Source: Promethearchaeota archaeon
GTDB lineage: Archaea; Asgardarchaeota; Lokiarchaeia; Sigyniarchaeales; SOKP01
Length of the DNA stretch: 21,757 nt
Direction: 5' to 3'
Assembly: GCA_016930515.1 (NCBI GenBank)
Contig: JAFGGO010000164.1
Coordinates: 1-21,757 of the forward strand
A model generated the notes under the pieces. The model worked only from the letters and a program-made list of their open reading frames with translations, did no database searches and was not told the origin of the DNA. Below, one piece after another: positions 10,594 to 21,355 of this stretch. A program made the position numbers and the translations under genes. Each line of letters begins with the position of its first letter. Position 1 is the first letter of the stretch.

Positions 10594-11064
10594 ATGGAGA
10601 AAGATCAACTATTATTTGGTGCAATTAGCATTGGACTAACCATAACCCTATTTATCTTGCATATATTATTTGTTTCGCCTTTTCAAAAGAACGGAATCCT
10701 TTTTTCACTTCTTTTATTAATTTTATGCGTTATAGAGACGATATTCCTTAGTAGGATAAAATATATATATGAAAAAAACTCAAACAAGGCAGAATTACTT
10801 GGAAAGATAAATAATACTAGTCAATATGGAAGAATCTTAACAGCAAGCGTGATTATATCATATTTAATAGCTCTTTTCATTTGTATTCTTCCCTCGCAGA
10901 TAAATCCTTCAGGATTAACAGCAAAAGACATTCTTGTTTATTCACTCTTACAATTAACTGACAGTCCAGAAGGTATCATCTTCTTATTGCAATACATTCT
11001 CATACCGGGTTTTTATGTAGCCGCTATAATTATAGGCACTTTCATTTTTGACAAGAACTTTTAA
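10594..11064 (+). CDS. Small integral membrane protein (about 4 TM)
   Basis: Four hydrophobic stretches. ATG at 10594 (GAGG upstream) preferred; the ORF track start is 10537. Confidence 0.7.
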   Translation: MEKDQLLFGAISIGLTITLFILHILFVSPFQKNGILFSLLLLILCVIETIFLSRIKYIYEKNSNKAELLGKINNTSQYGRILTASVIISYLIALFICILPSQINPSGLTAKDILVYSLLQLTDSPEGIIFLLQYILIPGFYVAAIIIGTFIFDKNF

Positions 11065-13640: not shown

Positions 13641-14462
13641 ATTTCGAAGGATGTTGCAATTTATACTGATAAACTTACCAAAAAGTTTAAAGATCTCGTT
13701 GCTGTAAGAGATTTGAACCTCAGTATCCCTAACGGTACCACATACGGTCTTTTAGGTCCAAATGGAGCAGGTAAGACGACTACCGTTAGGATGCTTAACG
13801 CCATTATCAAACCAAGTTCGGGAGTAGCAAAAGTTGGTGGATTCGATGTAATTACGCAGAGCGTTGATGTAAAAATGATATGCGGATTTTTACCAGAATC
13901 TCCAGGATTATATCAAAAATTGACTGCAAAAGAGTTTTTAGAATTTATTGGAGAATTATATTACATACCAAAGGATGTACTTGGATCCCGCATCGAAGAA
14001 CTTATAGAAATATTCGATTTAGAAGGACGGGAAAACGACCTTTTAGAAAACTACTCTCGAGGTATGAAACAAAAAGTATGTTTATGCGCGGCGTTAATTC
14101 AAGACCCGAAAATCATTTTCTTGGACGAACCCACATCAAACTTAGATCCCGCAGCGTCCAGAATGGTCAAAGACTTGATTTCAGATCTTGCGAAGAAGGC
14201 AGACAAGACAATATTTATTTGCACGCACTTATTAGATGCTGCCGAAGAATTATGCGACAGGATCGGAATTATTGACAAAGGAGTACTCAAAACGGAAGGT
14301 ACTCCTGCAGAATTAATGGCAGAAACCAATTGCTCCGATTTAGAAAGCGCTTATCTGAAACTTATGGGCGTTTCAAAGATAGACGACTTATTAGCGTGGA
14401 GAGATAAACATCCTAATGAAAATGAATTACCCAAGAAAAAAGGAAGAAAAAGCAAGCCATGA
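13641..14462 (+). CDS. ABC transporter ATP-binding protein (ABC-2/CcmA-like)
   Basis: Walker A GPNGAGKTT, signature YSRGMKQK, Walker B IIFLDEPT, H-loop CTH. The family N-terminus AIYTDKLTKKF...VAVRDLNL lies upstream of the track's TTG at 13713, so the start is placed at ATT 13641 (uncertain). Confidence 0.92.
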   Translation: MSKDVAIYTDKLTKKFKDLVAVRDLNLSIPNGTTYGLLGPNGAGKTTTVRMLNAIIKPSSGVAKVGGFDVITQSVDVKMICGFLPESPGLYQKLTAKEFLEFIGELYYIPKDVLGSRIEELIEIFDLEGRENDLLENYSRGMKQKVCLCAALIQDPKIIFLDEPTSNLDPAASRMVKDLISDLAKKADKTIFICTHLLDAAEELCDRIGIIDKGVLKTEGTPAELMAETNCSDLESAYLKLMGVSKIDDLLAWRDKHPNENELPKKKGRKSKP

Positions 14463-16072
14463 GTCTTTGGAAGGTAATAGCCAAGTACGAAATTAAGCGC
14501 GGAACGAGCTCAATTCGGAAACACAGAGTTTTAATTCTTTTTATCTTATACGCATTCTTGATAATTTGGGCAGTGATTTTAGCACCTTTATTGTTTGATG
14601 CCATCATGCCACCTCTCGTTTCAATAATTCCTTATTTCGAGGAAACTGTAGCTTTAATCATCGAAGCTTTATTGATGATGCTTTTCCTTGTGATCATGAT
14701 GTATCCCATTAATACTGTCTTCCGTAAGACAGAAATTGGATATAAAGAAATCTTATTGGCTTCTCCCGCAACAGAAGGAGATATTTTTATTGGTGAATTC
14801 GTTGGAAAATTTTTAGTATATATGGGAGCCATCTTGATTTTTGCACCAATCCTTCTCGGATTGATAAACGCAATCATTAATTTTACCGTTATAACATACA
14901 TCATTATCTATGCTTGCGTTATGGGACACGTGATATTTGCATTATTGATTGGAAACATTTTAGCTTCCTTAATAGAACACAAAATCGCTCGAAATCCTAA
15001 GTTCAAAGATTTAGGCAAGGTGTTCTTGTTTCTCATTTCGATAGGAATGGTTGCAATCATCTACACGCTACAATTTGCTTTCCAGATATTGTTGGAGAAT
15101 CCTGAACTTAAGAACTGGCTAATGTTCTATCCCTCCCTTTGGTTTTCCAATATCATACTTTATTCTATTAATCCCAATCTCATTAGTACCTATGTGTTAA
15201 ACATTTGGTCAAGCGTTTTGTTGATAATTTTCGTGCCCCTTCTCGTTTTTTACATCGCCTATAAAAAAGCGTCGAAGTTTTTTACCTTAGAAGGGGGAAT
15301 TGAGAAGATTTCGGACATCATTGAAAAAGAAAGCTCCTTTTACAAGCAGCTAAGGAAATACATCCCACATAACTGGGAAACTTTGATCGTGTCGCAATTA
15401 AAGGAATTCTTCAGGCGAAAAGAAAACATAATGAAATTAGTGTACACTTTAGGGATTACCTTGTTTATTGGAACCATGATGTATTTTACATCTCCTGCTG
15501 ATACCGAAGCATTAAGCGCTGAAGTTGATGCCATATTTACCATAATGATATTATTCGTATCTGGGATGATTTATTGTTTCATGATAGGAAACTACATTTT
15601 CGTTGGGAGCAGGGACCTCTTGTGGGTATACAAGAAATCGCCTCGTGGCGTAAAAACGCTTGTCTATTCATACATTCGGGCGCTAACGATACCGAGCATC
15701 TTCATAGGAATAATTACTACGATTTATTACTCGATTCTTTATCAATATACGGTATTATTTTCGATCCTATTTTTTGTATTATACTTGGTAAATATCACGA
15801 TTATCTTGTTCCAAGCGTGCGGAATCCAGTGCTTCAATCCCTCGTTTGAGGAAAAAGGAAAACAAATGGGCGCAAATATAATGATTCAGATGTTTTTCAT
15901 GTTCTTTATTTTATTTATCAGCATATTTTTATTGTTTAATTTTAATCTATTTCCACCCATAGAAGAAGATTTAATTCCCGTATTCATGTACTTGCCAATA
16001 TTGTTGCTATCACTAGCATTTACTATTCCAGTTTTTTATTTTGGAATTCGCAGGCTTGGAAGGATTGAATAA
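14459..16072 (+). CDS. ABC exporter permease, multi-pass membrane protein
   Basis: About 12-13 hydrophobic segments in two halves (ILLASP / VYKKSP). ATGA overlap with the ATPase gene indicates coupling. Confidence 0.82.
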   Translation: MSLWKVIAKYEIKRGTSSIRKHRVLILFILYAFLIIWAVILAPLLFDAIMPPLVSIIPYFEETVALIIEALLMMLFLVIMMYPINTVFRKTEIGYKEILLASPATEGDIFIGEFVGKFLVYMGAILIFAPILLGLINAIINFTVITYIIIYACVMGHVIFALLIGNILASLIEHKIARNPKFKDLGKVFLFLISIGMVAIIYTLQFAFQILLENPELKNWLMFYPSLWFSNIILYSINPNLISTYVLNIWSSVLLIIFVPLLVFYIAYKKASKFFTLEGGIEKISDIIEKESSFYKQLRKYIPHNWETLIVSQLKEFFRRKENIMKLVYTLGITLFIGTMMYFTSPADTEALSAEVDAIFTIMILFVSGMIYCFMIGNYIFVGSRDLLWVYKKSPRGVKTLVYSYIRALTIPSIFIGIITTIYYSILYQYTVLFSILFFVLYLVNITIILFQACGIQCFNPSFEEKGKQMGANIMIQMFFMFFILFISIFLLFNFNLFPPIEEDLIPVFMYLPILLLSLAFTIPVFYFGIRRLGRIE

Positions 16073-17143: not shown

Positions 17144-17920
17144 TCACTTAAGATTTCCTCGCCAAATCCCTTCTTTAAAACAAGCTTTAATGCATTTACC
17201 GCACACATTATGTTTCAGATCGAGGGAAAGAATGAAGTTTCTGCATTTCTCTCGATGGTCACCAAGATTATCTTTTTTTTCTAAAATAGGACACACCCTT
17301 AAGCAAGCGTCGCATTCCCCACATTGAGTTTCAATCTTATGCCCTTGTTTTAGCGGCAACTTGCATAAAATGGATGTAAAGCGAACAGCAGGTCCAAAAG
17401 CGGTCGTGACGATTAAGTCGTTTTTGCCTCTCCAACCAATCCCAGCGTGTTCGGCAACGACCCTATGTGAAATAGTGTGTGGAAAGTAATCGCTAACGTG
17501 ACTTATTTTCTCCGTTGGCACGCCTGTAGTCGGAGGTACGCATATTCCATTAAATTCATGTGCAATTTTTTCCCCAATTTCGGAGAGTAAATTATTCAAG
17601 TGAGCGTATTCATCTCCGTATTGATCCCAATATTCTTTATAGACGACATTATTTTTTGAAACATTAATACCTTCGATAATTCCATCGGGATAAAACAAGC
17701 CAAGAGATATAATATTTCCCAAATTCTTATACTCTTCCAATTCCTCTTTGAGAAGCTTTTCAAGTCTTTTTTTCTGGACAGGCATTAGATCTTTGAATAC
17801 TAAAGAAAATTTGGCTACTCCAAATACGCCTTCATAATCGTTCTCGTGTAGGAAATCCGAAAAGAATTGGTAAATTCTGTCTTTATTATTATCTTTTACA
17901 GAATTTGGATTACTATTCAT
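17144..17920 (-). CDS. QueG / reductive-dehalogenase-like 4Fe-4S protein
   Basis: SHRVVAEHAGIGWRGKNDL...FGPAVRFTSIL; CGECDACLRVCP; C-x13-CGKCIKAC. Confidence 0.8.
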   Translation of the reverse strand: MNSNPNSVKDNNKDRIYQFFSDFLHENDYEGVFGVAKFSLVFKDLMPVQKKRLEKLLKEELEEYKNLGNIISLGLFYPDGIIEGINVSKNNVVYKEYWDQYGDEYAHLNNLLSEIGEKIAHEFNGICVPPTTGVPTEKISHVSDYFPHTISHRVVAEHAGIGWRGKNDLIVTTAFGPAVRFTSILCKLPLKQGHKIETQCGECDACLRVCPILEKKDNLGDHREKCRNFILSLDLKHNVCGKCIKACFKEGIWRGNLK

Positions 17921-18027
17921 TAAAGTTCTATCCTGATTATCAATTATGTAGTTAAATTTCTTTGAAATCTAAAATTTTACCTTTTAGGTCGTTAAACAAA
18001 CTATAAATATCATCTTCCCTTAGTTTA

Positions 18028-18035
18028 TTTATAAT
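18028..18035 (+). promoter_or_regulatory. Candidate TATA box for the trp leader transcript
   Basis: TTTATAAT starting 35 nt before the leader ATG. An alternative TATAAAT lies at 18002-18008. The region is AT-rich and shared with the divergent gene. Confidence 0.4.
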
Positions 18036-18062
18036 TTAACAAAACAAAGTTGAGAACATAAC

Positions 18063-18134
18063 ATGCCTAATTTATTAGTCAAGACTGGTCTTCGCACTAC
18101 AACTTGGTTTTGGGTTTGGCGTTGGCACGCATAG
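18063..18134 (+). CDS. trpL: Trp-rich leader peptide (TrpL-like), 23 aa MPNLLVKTGLRTTTWFWVWRWHA
   Basis: ATG at 18063, TGG codons at 18105, 18111, 18117 and 18123, TAG at 18132-18134. It lies 143 nt upstream of trpE on the same strand. The symbol is given by analogy, not homology. Confidence 0.85.
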   Translation: MPNLLVKTGLRTTTWFWVWRWHA

Positions 18135-18191
18135 AACGTGCGCAATGGCAACTTTCAGATCTTAATCATCTTTAAAATCTAGATTTTTTTT
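18120..18191 (+). terminator. Putative attenuator: hairpin over the leader stop, weak AU stem and U8 tract
   Basis: CGTTG-GCACG (18120-18129) pairs with CGTGC-g-CAATG (18137-18147), loop CATAGAA. AGAT-c-TTAA/TTAA-a-ATCT stem at 18157-18180. T8 at 18184-18191. Confidence 0.65.
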
Positions 18192-18277
18192 CGTTATTAC
18201 GATTATCAGAATTTAAAAGCGAGAGTTCTTCAAACATATATAAGAGATAAAAAAATAAATAAAAAGGATAAGATAAA

Positions 18278-19795
18278 ATGATTGACGAAAACATCGAATT
18301 TGACATTCATATTGAAAAACTTGGAACGGTCAAAAATTCGGATATTTTTGGATTTTACAAGTATTTAGTAGCAAAATACGACTTAAAAAATCACGTGTTA
18401 TTGGAATCCGCTTCGGAAAGCACCAAAGAAGCCTTGTATAGTTTTATTGCCATGAAACCGGATTTCATGCTTCAAATTACCAAGGATCAGCACAAGATTT
18501 ACGATATCACCACCGAAAGGGGTGAAAACATCAAACATTACATTGAATCAAAGGATCCCGCAGAAGAAAGACCACACAATCCACTCCCATTCAAGGATAA
18601 TGTCGAATATAACATGGTTGCTCTAGATACCTTAAGTCACCTTACACCCTATTCAAACCTGCCTTTCACGGAATTGTTCCCAAGAAACATTTTTTATGGT
18701 GGAATGTTGGGATACATCGGTTATGATGTAGTAGCACCTTACGTGGGATATTCTGCCTCAAGCGATTTTCAAGACATCCTTATGGGCCTTTACACCAAAG
18801 TTTTAGTGTATTCTCACAAATCTAATTCAATATTCATGATCGACAACAGCATCGACGATTATTCTAAGGATAAGGACATAAGGTATCAATTAAGCTTGTT
18901 TAACAGGGAGCACGCTTCCAATGAAATTGCTGATATTCCGACGGACATTGAGGATATAGACGAATCGACTTTTCGATCAAATACGAGCAAGAGTGCTCAC
19001 GAAAAAATGGTTGAAAAAACCAAGGAGCACATTTATGCTGGTGATATCATCCAAGCGGTTATTTCAAGAAGATTATACGCAGAAAGCAAGGTTGAACCCT
19101 TGGAGATTTACGAAATATTGCGCCAACTCAATCCAAGCCCTTACATGTATAATATTAACTTTAAGGAGATTCACGTGATTGGCAGCAGTCCCGAAGCGCT
19201 CATCTCAAAAAACAAGGACATATTATCGACCGTGCCAATAGCGGGAACTATAAGAAGAGGAAAAACTGCGGAAGAGGACTTAAAACTGGAAAAACAACTC
19301 ATCAACGATCCAAAAGAACAAGCTGAACACCTCCAGTTAACGGATCTTGCTAGAAATGACTTGGCAAAGGTTTCTTATCCCGGAACGGTTGAAACGCACG
19401 ATTTCATGACAATACAGAAATATCAGAAAGTTCAGCACATCGTTAGCAAGGTCCAGAGTAGGACACCACTAGACGGATATCAAGTTTTAAAAAGTGTCTT
19501 CCCTGCTGGGACGCTTAGTGGGGCTCCGAAATTGAAAGCAATGCAAATAATTAACGAGTTAGAAACGGAATCGAGAGGACCATATGGAGGAGGGATCGGA
19601 TATTTCGCCTTCAACGGTGATATGGCGTTCGCAATAGCAATAAGAACTTTATTTGGAAGGGATAACAAGTATTTTGCTCAAGCTGGTGGGGGTATTGTAG
19701 CGGATAGCGTTCCAGAGGATGAATATGCTGAAACTTATAATAAGCTTTACAGCGTACTTAAATCAATAAAAATTGCGGAGGATAAAGGAAAATGA
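18278..19795 (+). CDS. trpE: Anthranilate synthase component I
   Basis: Trp feedback motifs LLES and NPSPYM; GSSPE, PIAGT, AEH-x3-DLARND, FPAGTLSGAPK, RGPYGG, IAIRT, QAGGGIVADS. Confidence 0.93.
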   Translation: MIDENIEFDIHIEKLGTVKNSDIFGFYKYLVAKYDLKNHVLLESASESTKEALYSFIAMKPDFMLQITKDQHKIYDITTERGENIKHYIESKDPAEERPHNPLPFKDNVEYNMVALDTLSHLTPYSNLPFTELFPRNIFYGGMLGYIGYDVVAPYVGYSASSDFQDILMGLYTKVLVYSHKSNSIFMIDNSIDDYSKDKDIRYQLSLFNREHASNEIADIPTDIEDIDESTFRSNTSKSAHEKMVEKTKEHIYAGDIIQAVISRRLYAESKVEPLEIYEILRQLNPSPYMYNINFKEIHVIGSSPEALISKNKDILSTVPIAGTIRRGKTAEEDLKLEKQLINDPKEQAEHLQLTDLARNDLAKVSYPGTVETHDFMTIQKYQKVQHIVSKVQSRTPLDGYQVLKSVFPAGTLSGAPKLKAMQIINELETESRGPYGGGIGYFAFNGDMAFAIAIRTLFGRDNKYFAQAGGGIVADSVPEDEYAETYNKLYSVLKSIKIAEDKGK

Positions 19796-20388
19796 ATATT
19801 TTATTTATAAACAATTATGATAGTTTTGTGTATAATTTAGTAAATTATATTTGTCAACTTACACCAGATTCAAATATAATCGTTGAGGATAACCAGATAT
19901 CTCTTGAAAAAGTAAAAGAATATGTTCCAAATAAAATAATCATTTCACCAGGTCCTGGTCATCCCAAATACGATTCAGGAACAGTAATACCAATTATCAA
20001 GGAATATTACGATAAAGTCCCTATATTGGGCGTTTGTTTGGGACATCAAGCAATGGTGGAAGCGTTTGGAGAAAATCCAGATGAAGAATATGTCGGATTA
20101 GCAAAAGTAGGACCAATGCACGGTAAAGAATCAAAAGTATTTCACGACCAAGAAACCATTTTTAAAAACATCCCTAATCCACTTAGAGTGATCCGATACC
20201 ATTCATTAGCAGCTAAGGGGGATATTCTGCCTAAAGTTCTCAAAATCACTGCGACAGCCGACGATGGTACAATAATGGCAATACGCCATAAGAATTATCC
20301 CGTAGAAGGAGTGCAATTTCATCCCGAATCCATAAAAATGAAGCCTGACGGAATGAAAATTTTAAAGAATTTCATGGAATTAGAATAA
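19792..20388 (+). CDS. trpG: Anthranilate synthase component II (glutamine amidotransferase)
   Basis: NYDSFVYNL, ISPGPGHP, GVCLGHQ, MHGK, RYHSL, GVQFHPES. ATGA overlap with trpE. Confidence 0.93.
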   Translation: MNILFINNYDSFVYNLVNYICQLTPDSNIIVEDNQISLEKVKEYVPNKIIISPGPGHPKYDSGTVIPIIKEYYDKVPILGVCLGHQAMVEAFGENPDEEYVGLAKVGPMHGKESKVFHDQETIFKNIPNPLRVIRYHSLAAKGDILPKVLKITATADDGTIMAIRHKNYPVEGVQFHPESIKMKPDGMKILKNFMELE

Positions 20389-20461: not shown

Positions 20462-21355
20462 ATGGATGAGTATATAATATATAAAAATGAAAAATATTCC
20501 CTTTGGAATAAAAGGTTAGATATAATTGAAAAAGAAATTAAATCCATTTTAGAATTGACAGACCTATTTAAATTTAAGGATTTAAAAGGATTAGCTTTAA
20601 AAACAAATAAGATAACTAGTTTAGAAGGTGTAGAAAAATTCTTAGAACTAAGTAGCTTAAACTTAAGAAAAAATAATATTGAAAAAATAGAAAATCTTGA
20701 TAAACTTGATAATTTAGTGGAATTAATCTTAGAATTTAATAAAATAGGAATTATAGAAGGATTTGCGAATTTAAAAAATTTAACCTACTTGAATCTTTCA
20801 CATAATAACATTAAGAGAATCGAAAATTTAGAGAATTTAGAAGCCTTAAAAACATTAAATCTTAGCTTTAATGAAATATCAAAAATTGAAGGTCTATCAA
20901 CTTTAAAAAATCTGGAAAAATTGGATTTGACAAGAAATGTAAATATTTCTAAAATTGAAAATCTCGATAATTTAGAAAATTTGAAAACACTTATCATTGA
21001 TGGAACCTCAATAAAAAAAATTGAAGGACTGTCAAAATTAAAAAATCTTGAATTTTTAAGCATCGTTTGTGATAAAAATAAAGAACGAATTACTGAAATA
21101 GAAGGTTTAGAACACTTAATAAATTTGAAGGATATTTCTATAAACACTTTTTATCTTCATCATTCGGAATTTAGTTATTCTAATATAGTTATTATTCTTC
21201 GTTTTGCTTGCATGATAAAAACTAATGAATATCATTCAATTGAAGATTGGAAAGAAATTTTCAAAAGATTTCCTAAAGCATTCACAAATTTTGAGATCAA
21301 TTTACCAGATCCGAGAATTAAATGGTATGTAAAACTATGTAGCTCAAAATTATAA
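20462..21355 (+). CDS. SDS22-like leucine-rich repeat protein
   Basis: 22-aa units LxxLxLxxNxIxxIExL (e.g. LTYLNLSHNNIKRIENLENLEA, LKTLNLSFNEISKIEGLSTLKN). The frame stays open for 34 codons after the TAA. Confidence 0.88.
   Translation: MDEYIIYKNEKYSLWNKRLDIIEKEIKSILELTDLFKFKDLKGLALKTNKITSLEGVEKFLELSSLNLRKNNIEKIENLDKLDNLVELILEFNKIGIIEGFANLKNLTYLNLSHNNIKRIENLENLEALKTLNLSFNEISKIEGLSTLKNLEKLDLTRNVNISKIENLDNLENLKTLIIDGTSIKKIEGLSKLKNLEFLSIVCDKNKERITEIEGLEHLINLKDISINTFYLHHSEFSYSNIVIILRFACMIKTNEYHSIEDWKEIFKRFPKAFTNFEINLPDPRIKWYVKLCSSKL

Follow-up and report, generated by a model that had tools for sequence, protein, structure and literature searches.

The window, by which we mean the whole stretch of 21,757 nucleotides analysed here, carries trpE and trpG on its forward strand. 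A gap of 357 nt separates a leftward open reading frame (ORF; 17144-17920) from trpE, and a short ORF with four Trp codons lies inside this gap; trpE and trpG (18278..20388) are presumably the genes under its control. An initial annotation of this DNA had described a set of RNA elements around the short ORF, and every one of them is found where it had put them. The features on which the argument is built are as follows.

17994..18009, forward strand: predicted archaeal promoter, an A-rich BRE-like stretch and the TATA box TATAAATA (18002-18009)
18040..18052, forward strand: 5' arm of helix P1, CAAAACAAAGUUG, in the leader 5' UTR; pairs at 12 of 13 positions with 18100-18112
18063-18134, forward strand: leader ORF of 23 codons, MPNLLVKTGLRTTTWFWVWRWHA and a stop, with four Trp codons (UGG); predicted to be translated
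18100..18112, forward strand: 3' arm of helix P1, CAACUUGGUUUUG, spanning the codons Thr-Trp-Phe-Trp
18120..18147, forward strand: hairpin P2, whose 5' arm is formed by the codons Arg-Trp-His-Ala, with UAG in the loop CAUAGAA
18149..18155, forward strand: CAACUUU, alternative partner of AAAGUUG, present in the sequence and unconserved in orthologs
18155..18183, forward strand: weak AU-rich hairpin before U8 (-3.6 kcal/mol, z -1.1; matched by 31 of 200 shuffles)
18174-18187, forward strand: perfect 14-bp palindrome AAAATCTAGATTTT, within the region of the weak AU hairpin and U8
18184..18191, forward strand: U8 tract, candidate archaeal-type terminator of the leader transcript
18208..18229, forward strand: short hairpin AGAAUUU / GAGUUCU followed by UCAAAC, shrunken counterpart of hairpin P3 of the orthologs
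18278-19795, forward strand: trpE (Pfam Chorismate_bind, 1.2e-83; Anth_synt_I_N, 1.4e-14)
19792-20388, forward strand: trpG (Pfam GATase, 1.8e-52)

TrpE is 75-88% identical to proteins of Promethearchaeota and Hodarchaeota (Asgard) MAGs, and its next relatives are bacterial at only 35-48%; the window is therefore archaeal, as had been supposed initially. The GC content is 28-37%. Directly 3' of trpG lies a gene for a leucine-rich-repeat protein of 297 aa (20462-21355, forward strand), and the ORFs at 14459-16072 (forward strand, 537 aa) and 17144-17920 (reverse strand, 258 aa) have no Pfam match. An assembly titled Methanomassiliicoccales (L005, CP070739.1) carries an Asgard-type trpA-trpE beside a run of N, with a TrpE 80% identical to that of the window; this assembly is probably mis-binned or chimeric.

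The leader ORF has its Trp codons at 18105, 18111, 18117 and 18123, with an Arg-Trp pair at 18120-18125, and ends with UAG at 18132-18134. An orthologous mini-ORF, mostly of 22-23 codons, precedes the trp genes in 15 species of the family, and the first gene behind it is trpE, trpA or trpD. The encoded peptides are variable at the N-terminus and share the C-terminus TWFWxWRWH(A), followed by the stop. These orthologs were collected with a 23-base motif pattern, which matched in 64 of 400 genomes of the phylum and in 47 of the 134 of the window's own family, compared with about nine matches for the reversed pattern used as control; a set gathered by such a pattern is biased toward conserved cores, and its power for covariation is limited. 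In most orthologs the leader stop and the start of the gene are about 140-150 nt apart. With the leader peptide as query, no Pfam family was matched, PF08255 (Leader_Trp) included, and the Rfam search gave no match at the gathering score and none to related families, RF00513 included, even at E<=10.

A scan of the whole genome for intergenic frames with at least four Trp codons in eight returned three, two of them the leaders ahead of trp operons; the third is within a small coding region and is thus no leader. Two further Trp-rich frames, on contigs C63 and C162, were rejected because they fall within coding DNA. The genome therefore holds exactly two true intergenic Trp-rich mini-ORFs, one before trpEG and one before trpD-C-F-B-(EF-hand)-A. 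The Trp pathway of this organism consists of two operons, with a Trp-rich mini-ORF at the head of each. The arrangement is that of a short ORF with Trp codons directly before Trp biosynthesis genes, in which translation of the ORF itself is deduced.

The end of the leader ORF is built into a hairpin. P2 pairs CGUUG with CAAUG and GCACG with CGUGC and leaves G18142 bulged. With -15.4 kcal/mol (z -2.8; 2 of 200 shuffles fold equally well) it is the strongest local hairpin and lies above chance, just as the initial annotation had it when it named 18120-18147, with UAG in the loop, as the most stable hairpin of the neighborhood. P2 is present in all 15 orthologs, with 94.6-94.7% of the alignment cells paired. 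Of 25 leaders, 24 have their stop inside a hairpin formed with the last Trp codons (15/15 of the present type, E-type, and 9/10 of the sister D-type described below), in three registers; a fourth register is seen in the leader of another family. P2 (18120-18147) thus has the layout of a 1:2-like hairpin, with regulatory codons and the stop codon inside it.

The first Trp codons are embedded in a second helix. AAAGUUG (18046-52), which was noted initially as able to pair with either of two partners, forms with CAACUU (18100-05) the core of the 12/13-bp helix P1. In each of the 12 relatives examined, the equivalent duplex between 5' UTR and Trp segment is more stable than the duplexes of shuffled 5' UTRs (z -1.7 to -4.5). 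In the ortholog alignment 83.9% of the P1 cells are paired, and two pairs carry changes on both sides. The non-coding arm differs by lineage (CAAAG, UCAAG, CCAAG) with complementarity kept, and in L047 a G-C pair has become A-U. P1 was tested through a user-specified structure and through duplex energies; RNAalifold on a MAFFT alignment gave P2 alone because the 5' arms are misaligned in it. The second proposed partner, CAACUUU, did not stand up: its duplex with AAAGUUG (-6.2 kcal/mol) is at chance level (p = 0.24 compared with shuffles), the segment is missing in most relatives and a comparable site occurs in only one, so that we rejected this pairing as a conserved feature.

Taken together, P1 and P2 have 88.8% of their cells paired in the orthologs, compared with 29-44% when the partners are slid. 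The initial annotation had looked to conservation and to covariation of the stems. The former was found, whereas the latter did not exceed that of the shuffle control: no more than two pairs are altered on both sides, because the ortholog sequences are too alike. In the Trp-rich C-terminal block a single codon, x in WxW, falls in neither helix, and free variation (V, K, A, D, I) is confined to it. The non-Trp residues of the block therefore seem to be conserved on account of the RNA helices and not of the peptide.

The second Trp leader of the genome, a D-type leader, encodes MTISFANHFGWQWPWRWQ and a stop on contig C24 (about 10732-10790; L024:1490-1553, reverse strand) before trpD-trpC-trpF-trpB-(EF-hand protein)-trpA. 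Its stop codon lies inside a hairpin, T5 follows 23 nt later, and the 143 nt to trpD equal the distance between the E-type leader and trpE. D-type leaders share with the leader of the window the core UGGnnnUGGCGUUGGCA, the stop-enclosing hairpin and a T-run 25-50 nt after the stop. They differ in a shorter ORF of 15-18 codons, in the registers of the hairpin, in the downstream hairpins and in a 5' partner that overlaps the leader start codon; the E-type covariance model detects the D-type leader weakly (E 0.001-0.5). The gene between trpB and trpA on contig C24 encodes an EF-hand protein of 149 aa (EF-hand_7, 4.9e-30; L065:2858-3307, reverse strand). In the D-type leaders L042-L060 of trpD/trpB2 operons, long conserved hairpins such as CGUUAAUAUUAUUG-AAUUC-CAAUAAUAUAACG are found 60-150 nt after the stop, and a CACAUC-AUAA-GAUGUG hairpin is found just before the ribosome-binding site. 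These additional hairpins suggest a second layer of RNA-based control.

Leaders with amino-acid runs are not restricted to Trp in this genome, which has seven of them (Trp twice, Ile, Leu, Leu/Val twice, Val). The five non-Trp mini-ORFs lie upstream of C47 28373, C134 20521 (reverse strand), C61 8107, C126 42127 and C122 19770 (reverse strand); the Ile run precedes a cimA-like gene and the Leu run a leuA-like gene, both judged from their N-termini only. All five have their codon runs embedded in hairpins, and at least five T follow the stop in only one. Outside the family, a genome of another family of the same class (G129), which is GC-richer, has a 34-codon leader (...FWRWQWCWRWQ and a stop; L038, reverse strand, motif 1509-1529) before a trpB2-like gene. 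The loop of a hairpin of -16.2 kcal/mol, whose 3' arm is a different one, contains its UGA; an AU hairpin and U5 stand just before the ribosome-binding site.

In 15 orthologs the promoter element AAA(A/C)TATAAATA is conserved, and the P1 5' arm follows it at a constant distance of about 30 nt. From this conserved TATA box and the usual archaeal spacing between TATA box and start, transcription is predicted to begin near 18033, and 18046-52 should therefore be transcribed. SD-like GGTG/AGGA motifs precede the first trp gene in most orthologs, which places the beginning of the 5' UTR upstream of these motifs.

The candidate output of such a leader is the U-run. In archaea, terminators are U-tracts to which aCPSF1 binds and which need no hairpin (PMC8716108); for FttA, an action upon uncoupling of transcription and translation has been proposed (PMC11616081). 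This picture of archaeal termination, on which the initial annotation had drawn, agrees with what the host offers. FttA/aCPSF1 is encoded in the genome (TIGR03675, 879.5 bits compared with a cut-off of 580.2), and sense-strand runs of T6 or longer peak genome-wide 0-25 nt after stop codons, at 0.21 per gene compared with 0.02 inside genes, while A-runs show no such peak. U8 falls within the definition of an archaeal terminator as at least 4-5 U without a hairpin (PMC8716108). No terminator of the bacterial type came up in the consensus scan of 17900-18320, and what precedes U8 is the weak AU stem listed above instead of a GC-rich 3:4 hairpin; both observations confirm the lack of a strong GC terminator stem that had been pointed out at the outset.

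T-runs recur in the relatives. A run of at least six T lies between leader and gene in 13 of the 15 orthologs, and its position counted from the leader stop varies: +49 in the window, +60 in L001, and +91 to +101 in most orthologs, where it is fixed in nine. At least five T are found at +25 to +50 in eight of ten D-type leaders. For comparison, 37% of the 150-nt upstream windows of the genome contain T>=6 and 7.6% contain T>=8. With T-runs this frequent in intergenic DNA, and with the run of the window at +49, U8 by itself is weak evidence; the recurrence across relatives argues moderately for a role in the output.

The surroundings of the T-run are less constant. Most orthologs, L053, L003, L004 and L055 among them, have, 70-130 nt after the leader stop, a strong and conserved hairpin P3 (UUAGAAUUUCU ... 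AGAAAUUCUAA, with a loop of 25-95 nt), behind which come UUCAAAU and, after a further stretch of about 25 nt, T6-T10; both arms of P3 are lengthened together in L047. In most relatives P3 stands between P2 and the T-run, and a U-rich tail comes directly after P2, whereas in the window U8 comes first, the P3-like hairpin behind it is small and a U-rich tail is missing. That hairpin (18208-18229) resembles the 3' arm of the ortholog P3 with UUCAAAU, and the segment around it (18192-18246, -4.8 kcal/mol) includes one more small hairpin, of 3 bp. The output region has evidently changed quickly in evolution. The U fraction of the tail after P2 has a mean of 0.53 in relatives compared with a background of 0.37, and in the window it is 0.38 with U3 as the longest run. 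A terminator made of P2 and this U-rich tail, and occluded by a stalled ribosome, fits some relatives and not the window, and was rejected. A word TTACGATT shared by three leaders after the T-run occurs at its expected genome-wide frequency (386 matches), and no TRAP-like (U/G)AG repeat array was seen in a search by eye. That U8 is a regulated, hairpin-independent terminator is, on this evidence, close to an even call.

A run of T just after a stop codon is also what an ordinary gene end looks like in this genome. The leader could, on a quite improbable reading, be a transcription unit of its own, a Trp-rich micropeptide or a small RNA ended by U8, with trpEG transcribed from a second promoter in 18195-18270 and only an indirect link to Trp. 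TATA-like AT-rich words do stand 20-40 nt before the start codon (CATATATAAGAG at 18236-18247 in the window, AATATAAA-like words in several orthologs). The spacing of about 140-150 nt from leader stop to gene in most orthologs, and of 143 nt for both leaders of the genome, argues against two independent units, as does the fact that the leader accompanies whichever trp gene is first. The SD-like motifs ahead of the start codon speak for a longer 5' UTR, and the peptide, which is without a Pfam match, is conserved only where its codons fall in helices.

The palindrome that overlaps U8 and its weak stem, and which the initial annotation had offered as a possible repressor site, leads to a further reading, in which AAAATCTAGATTTT is the operator of a DNA-binding tryptophan repressor that does the regulating. 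The leader does contain this perfect 14-bp palindrome, with about 0.09 expected in an intergenic region of this size; yet there are eight in the window and 527 in the genome. AAAATCTAGATTTT is unique in the genome, neither the sister trp leader nor any of the 14 orthologous leaders has it, and it lies about 150 nt downstream of the conserved promoter. An operator palindrome conserved or repeated over a regulon was not found here. As RNA alone the palindrome has 0 kcal/mol. Since it is a single copy without counterpart in sister or orthologs, nothing points to a repressor site, and we consider this explanation very unlikely.

We then come to the coupling between ribosome and output. Each leader was folded as far as its T-run while 30 nt were masked as the footprint of a ribosome, positioned in turn at the Trp codons and at the stop codon. 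In these masked folds a ribosome at the first to third Trp codon (W1-W3) abolishes P1, which forms again once the footprint is moved to the stop; P2 is missing at W2-W4 as well as at the stop. Around the U8 of the window nothing moves. The predicted accessibility of the U8 region in the window is 0.41-0.44 under all masks, and the hairpin beside U8 is unchanged. With UAG in its A site, a ribosome would end near 18147 and leave 37 nt before U8; stalled on the Trp codons it is still farther away, so direct steric gating is unlikely. The initial proposal that ribosome position gates access to the U-tract thus finds no counterpart in the folds, and the suggested comparison of folding with and without the footprint left the predicted structure around U8 unaltered in the window.

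These folds also bear on a classical attenuator of the bacterial style, in which the freed 3' arm of P2 or 5' arm of P1 would pair downstream and prevent a terminator hairpin at the U-run. Some pairings of this kind can be drawn. AAAGUUG pairs with CAACUUU in the W1-stalled fold, the P2 3' arm CGUGCG can pair with ACGCAUG of the P3 loop in four orthologs (p = 0.02 in L053), and in several orthologs the T-run is predicted to be less accessible once the A-rich 5' arm is free. None of them generalizes. By duplex prediction, the alternative pairings of the P2 3' arm are at chance in 11 of 12 orthologs and those of the P1 5' arm in 12 of 12, at sites that are non-homologous; in the window the P2 3' arm finds no downstream partner (p = 0.97). 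The pairing with the P3 loop is confined to a few orthologs, not including the window, and was set aside as a switch. Masking of the T-run by the A-rich arm was likewise set aside, as it is negligible in the window (0.97 to 0.93), modest in some relatives and inseparable from base composition. There is no GC-rich terminator to be prevented, and the stem before U8 (-3.6 kcal/mol) persists in every masked fold. No mutually exclusive 2:3 antiterminator appears, the comparison being one of thermodynamic predictions only. We judge a bacterial-style attenuator unlikely, in line with the initial idea of a mechanism different from 2:3/3:4 switching, for which no conserved alternative pairing was found. 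A link between helix opening and read-through would, as far as these models go, involve neither a detectable conserved 2:3/3:4 hairpin swap nor a direct steric cover of the U-tract.

A distinctly less favored but serious possibility than termination at U8 keeps the same sensor and changes the output: the stalled ribosome would act on mRNA stability, processing or translation, for instance by blocking a 5'-to-3' exonuclease or by altering a structure that is recognised by a nuclease or a protein, and U8 would be incidental or a constitutive partial terminator. At least five T follow the stop in only three of the seven amino-acid-run leaders, so such leaders may not generally use U-tract termination as their output; intergenic DNA often contains T-runs, the masked folds reveal no structural link from ribosome position to U8, and the strong, conserved P3 of most orthologs has a role that is unexplained. 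The T-run between leader and gene is, on the other hand, kept in nearly all E-type and in 8/10 D-type leaders despite varying flanks. Of the possible other outputs, sequestration of the ribosome-binding site is unlikely, because the trpE start is A-rich and predicted to be open in all masked states.

The reading that we favor, and that we hold to be probable, is that 18033-18277 is the 5' leader of a trpE-trpG mRNA that acts as a ribosome-read Trp attenuator with termination at U8 as its output. Its transcription start, its RNA 3' ends and the translation of its ORF are all deduced from sequence. The sensor part, a ribosome-read Trp gauge in an archaeon, is well supported and is the part in which we are confident. 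The four UGG codons sit in the P1 3' arm and the P2 5' arm, and the stop sits in the P2 loop. A ribosome awaiting Trp-tRNA would hold P1 open, and P2 as well when it stands at the second to fourth Trp codon; a ribosome that reaches UAG and leaves would allow both P1 and P2 to fold. With the helices folded and the RNA free of ribosomes, RNA polymerase would stop at U8 (18184-91) through aCPSF1/FttA and without a strong hairpin, which would yield a leader transcript of about 155-160 nt. A stalled ribosome would lower termination at U8, so that trpEG would be made under tryptophan scarcity.

Comparison with known systems shows what is shared and what is not. Like the enterobacterial trpL attenuator (RF00513, PF08255), the Asgard leader is a short ORF with Trp codons just before trpE and has a U-run between leader and first gene; P2 corresponds to the 1:2 hairpin of trpL in having the regulatory codons and the stop inside the hairpin, and the expected logic, in which a ribosome stalled at Trp codons leads to expression, is the same. 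The differences are several. The host is archaeal, four alternating Trp codons (WxWxWxW) replace the two tandem ones of trpL, an additional helix, P1, links the 5' UTR with the first Trp codons, a GC-rich 3:4 terminator is missing, a 2:3 antiterminator is not detectable, and the U-run lies 37 nt beyond the strong hairpin. A second point of reference is tnaC-tnaAB, which is Rho-dependent: the ribosome stalls at the stop codon at high Trp and covers the entry site of the factor. By analogy, in both systems the leader-ORF ribosome would decide on the action of a termination factor on naked downstream RNA, with no intrinsic hairpin needed; unlike tnaC, a biosynthetic operon would need the opposite sign, and the candidate site would be too far away for steric cover. 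The archaeal U-tract/FttA terminators (PMC8716108, PMC7515710, PMC11616081) resemble U8 in having at least five U and needing no upstream hairpin. Those known are gene-end or intra-operon terminators (PMC10450193). Our literature search found no published leader peptide that controls an archaeal U-tract terminator, and a full-text search found no archaeal leader-peptide attenuator. Only tentatively do we propose the full chain of events for Asgard archaea, in which charged tRNA-Trp is sensed by the leader-ORF ribosome and turned into FttA termination at a bare U-tract without the bacterial hairpin swap.

Attenuation by leader peptides is the textbook case of coupled transcription and translation, and to our knowledge it has so far been documented only in bacteria. 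Archaea couple transcription and translation and terminate with U-tracts and a CPSF73-like nuclease; an attenuator in Asgard archaea, the prokaryotes closest to eukaryotes, would therefore show how a signal from the ribosome reaches a eukaryote-like transcription machinery. If true, the finding would bring ribosome-mediated attenuation to the archaeal domain, with an output mechanism undescribed in any domain. For the proposed FttA quality control of coupling (PMC11616081), the leader would be a compact natural template of about 250 nt. Its sensor, made of P1, the four UGG codons and the stop-enclosing P2, is conserved and portable between operons, and the output region behind it changes quickly.
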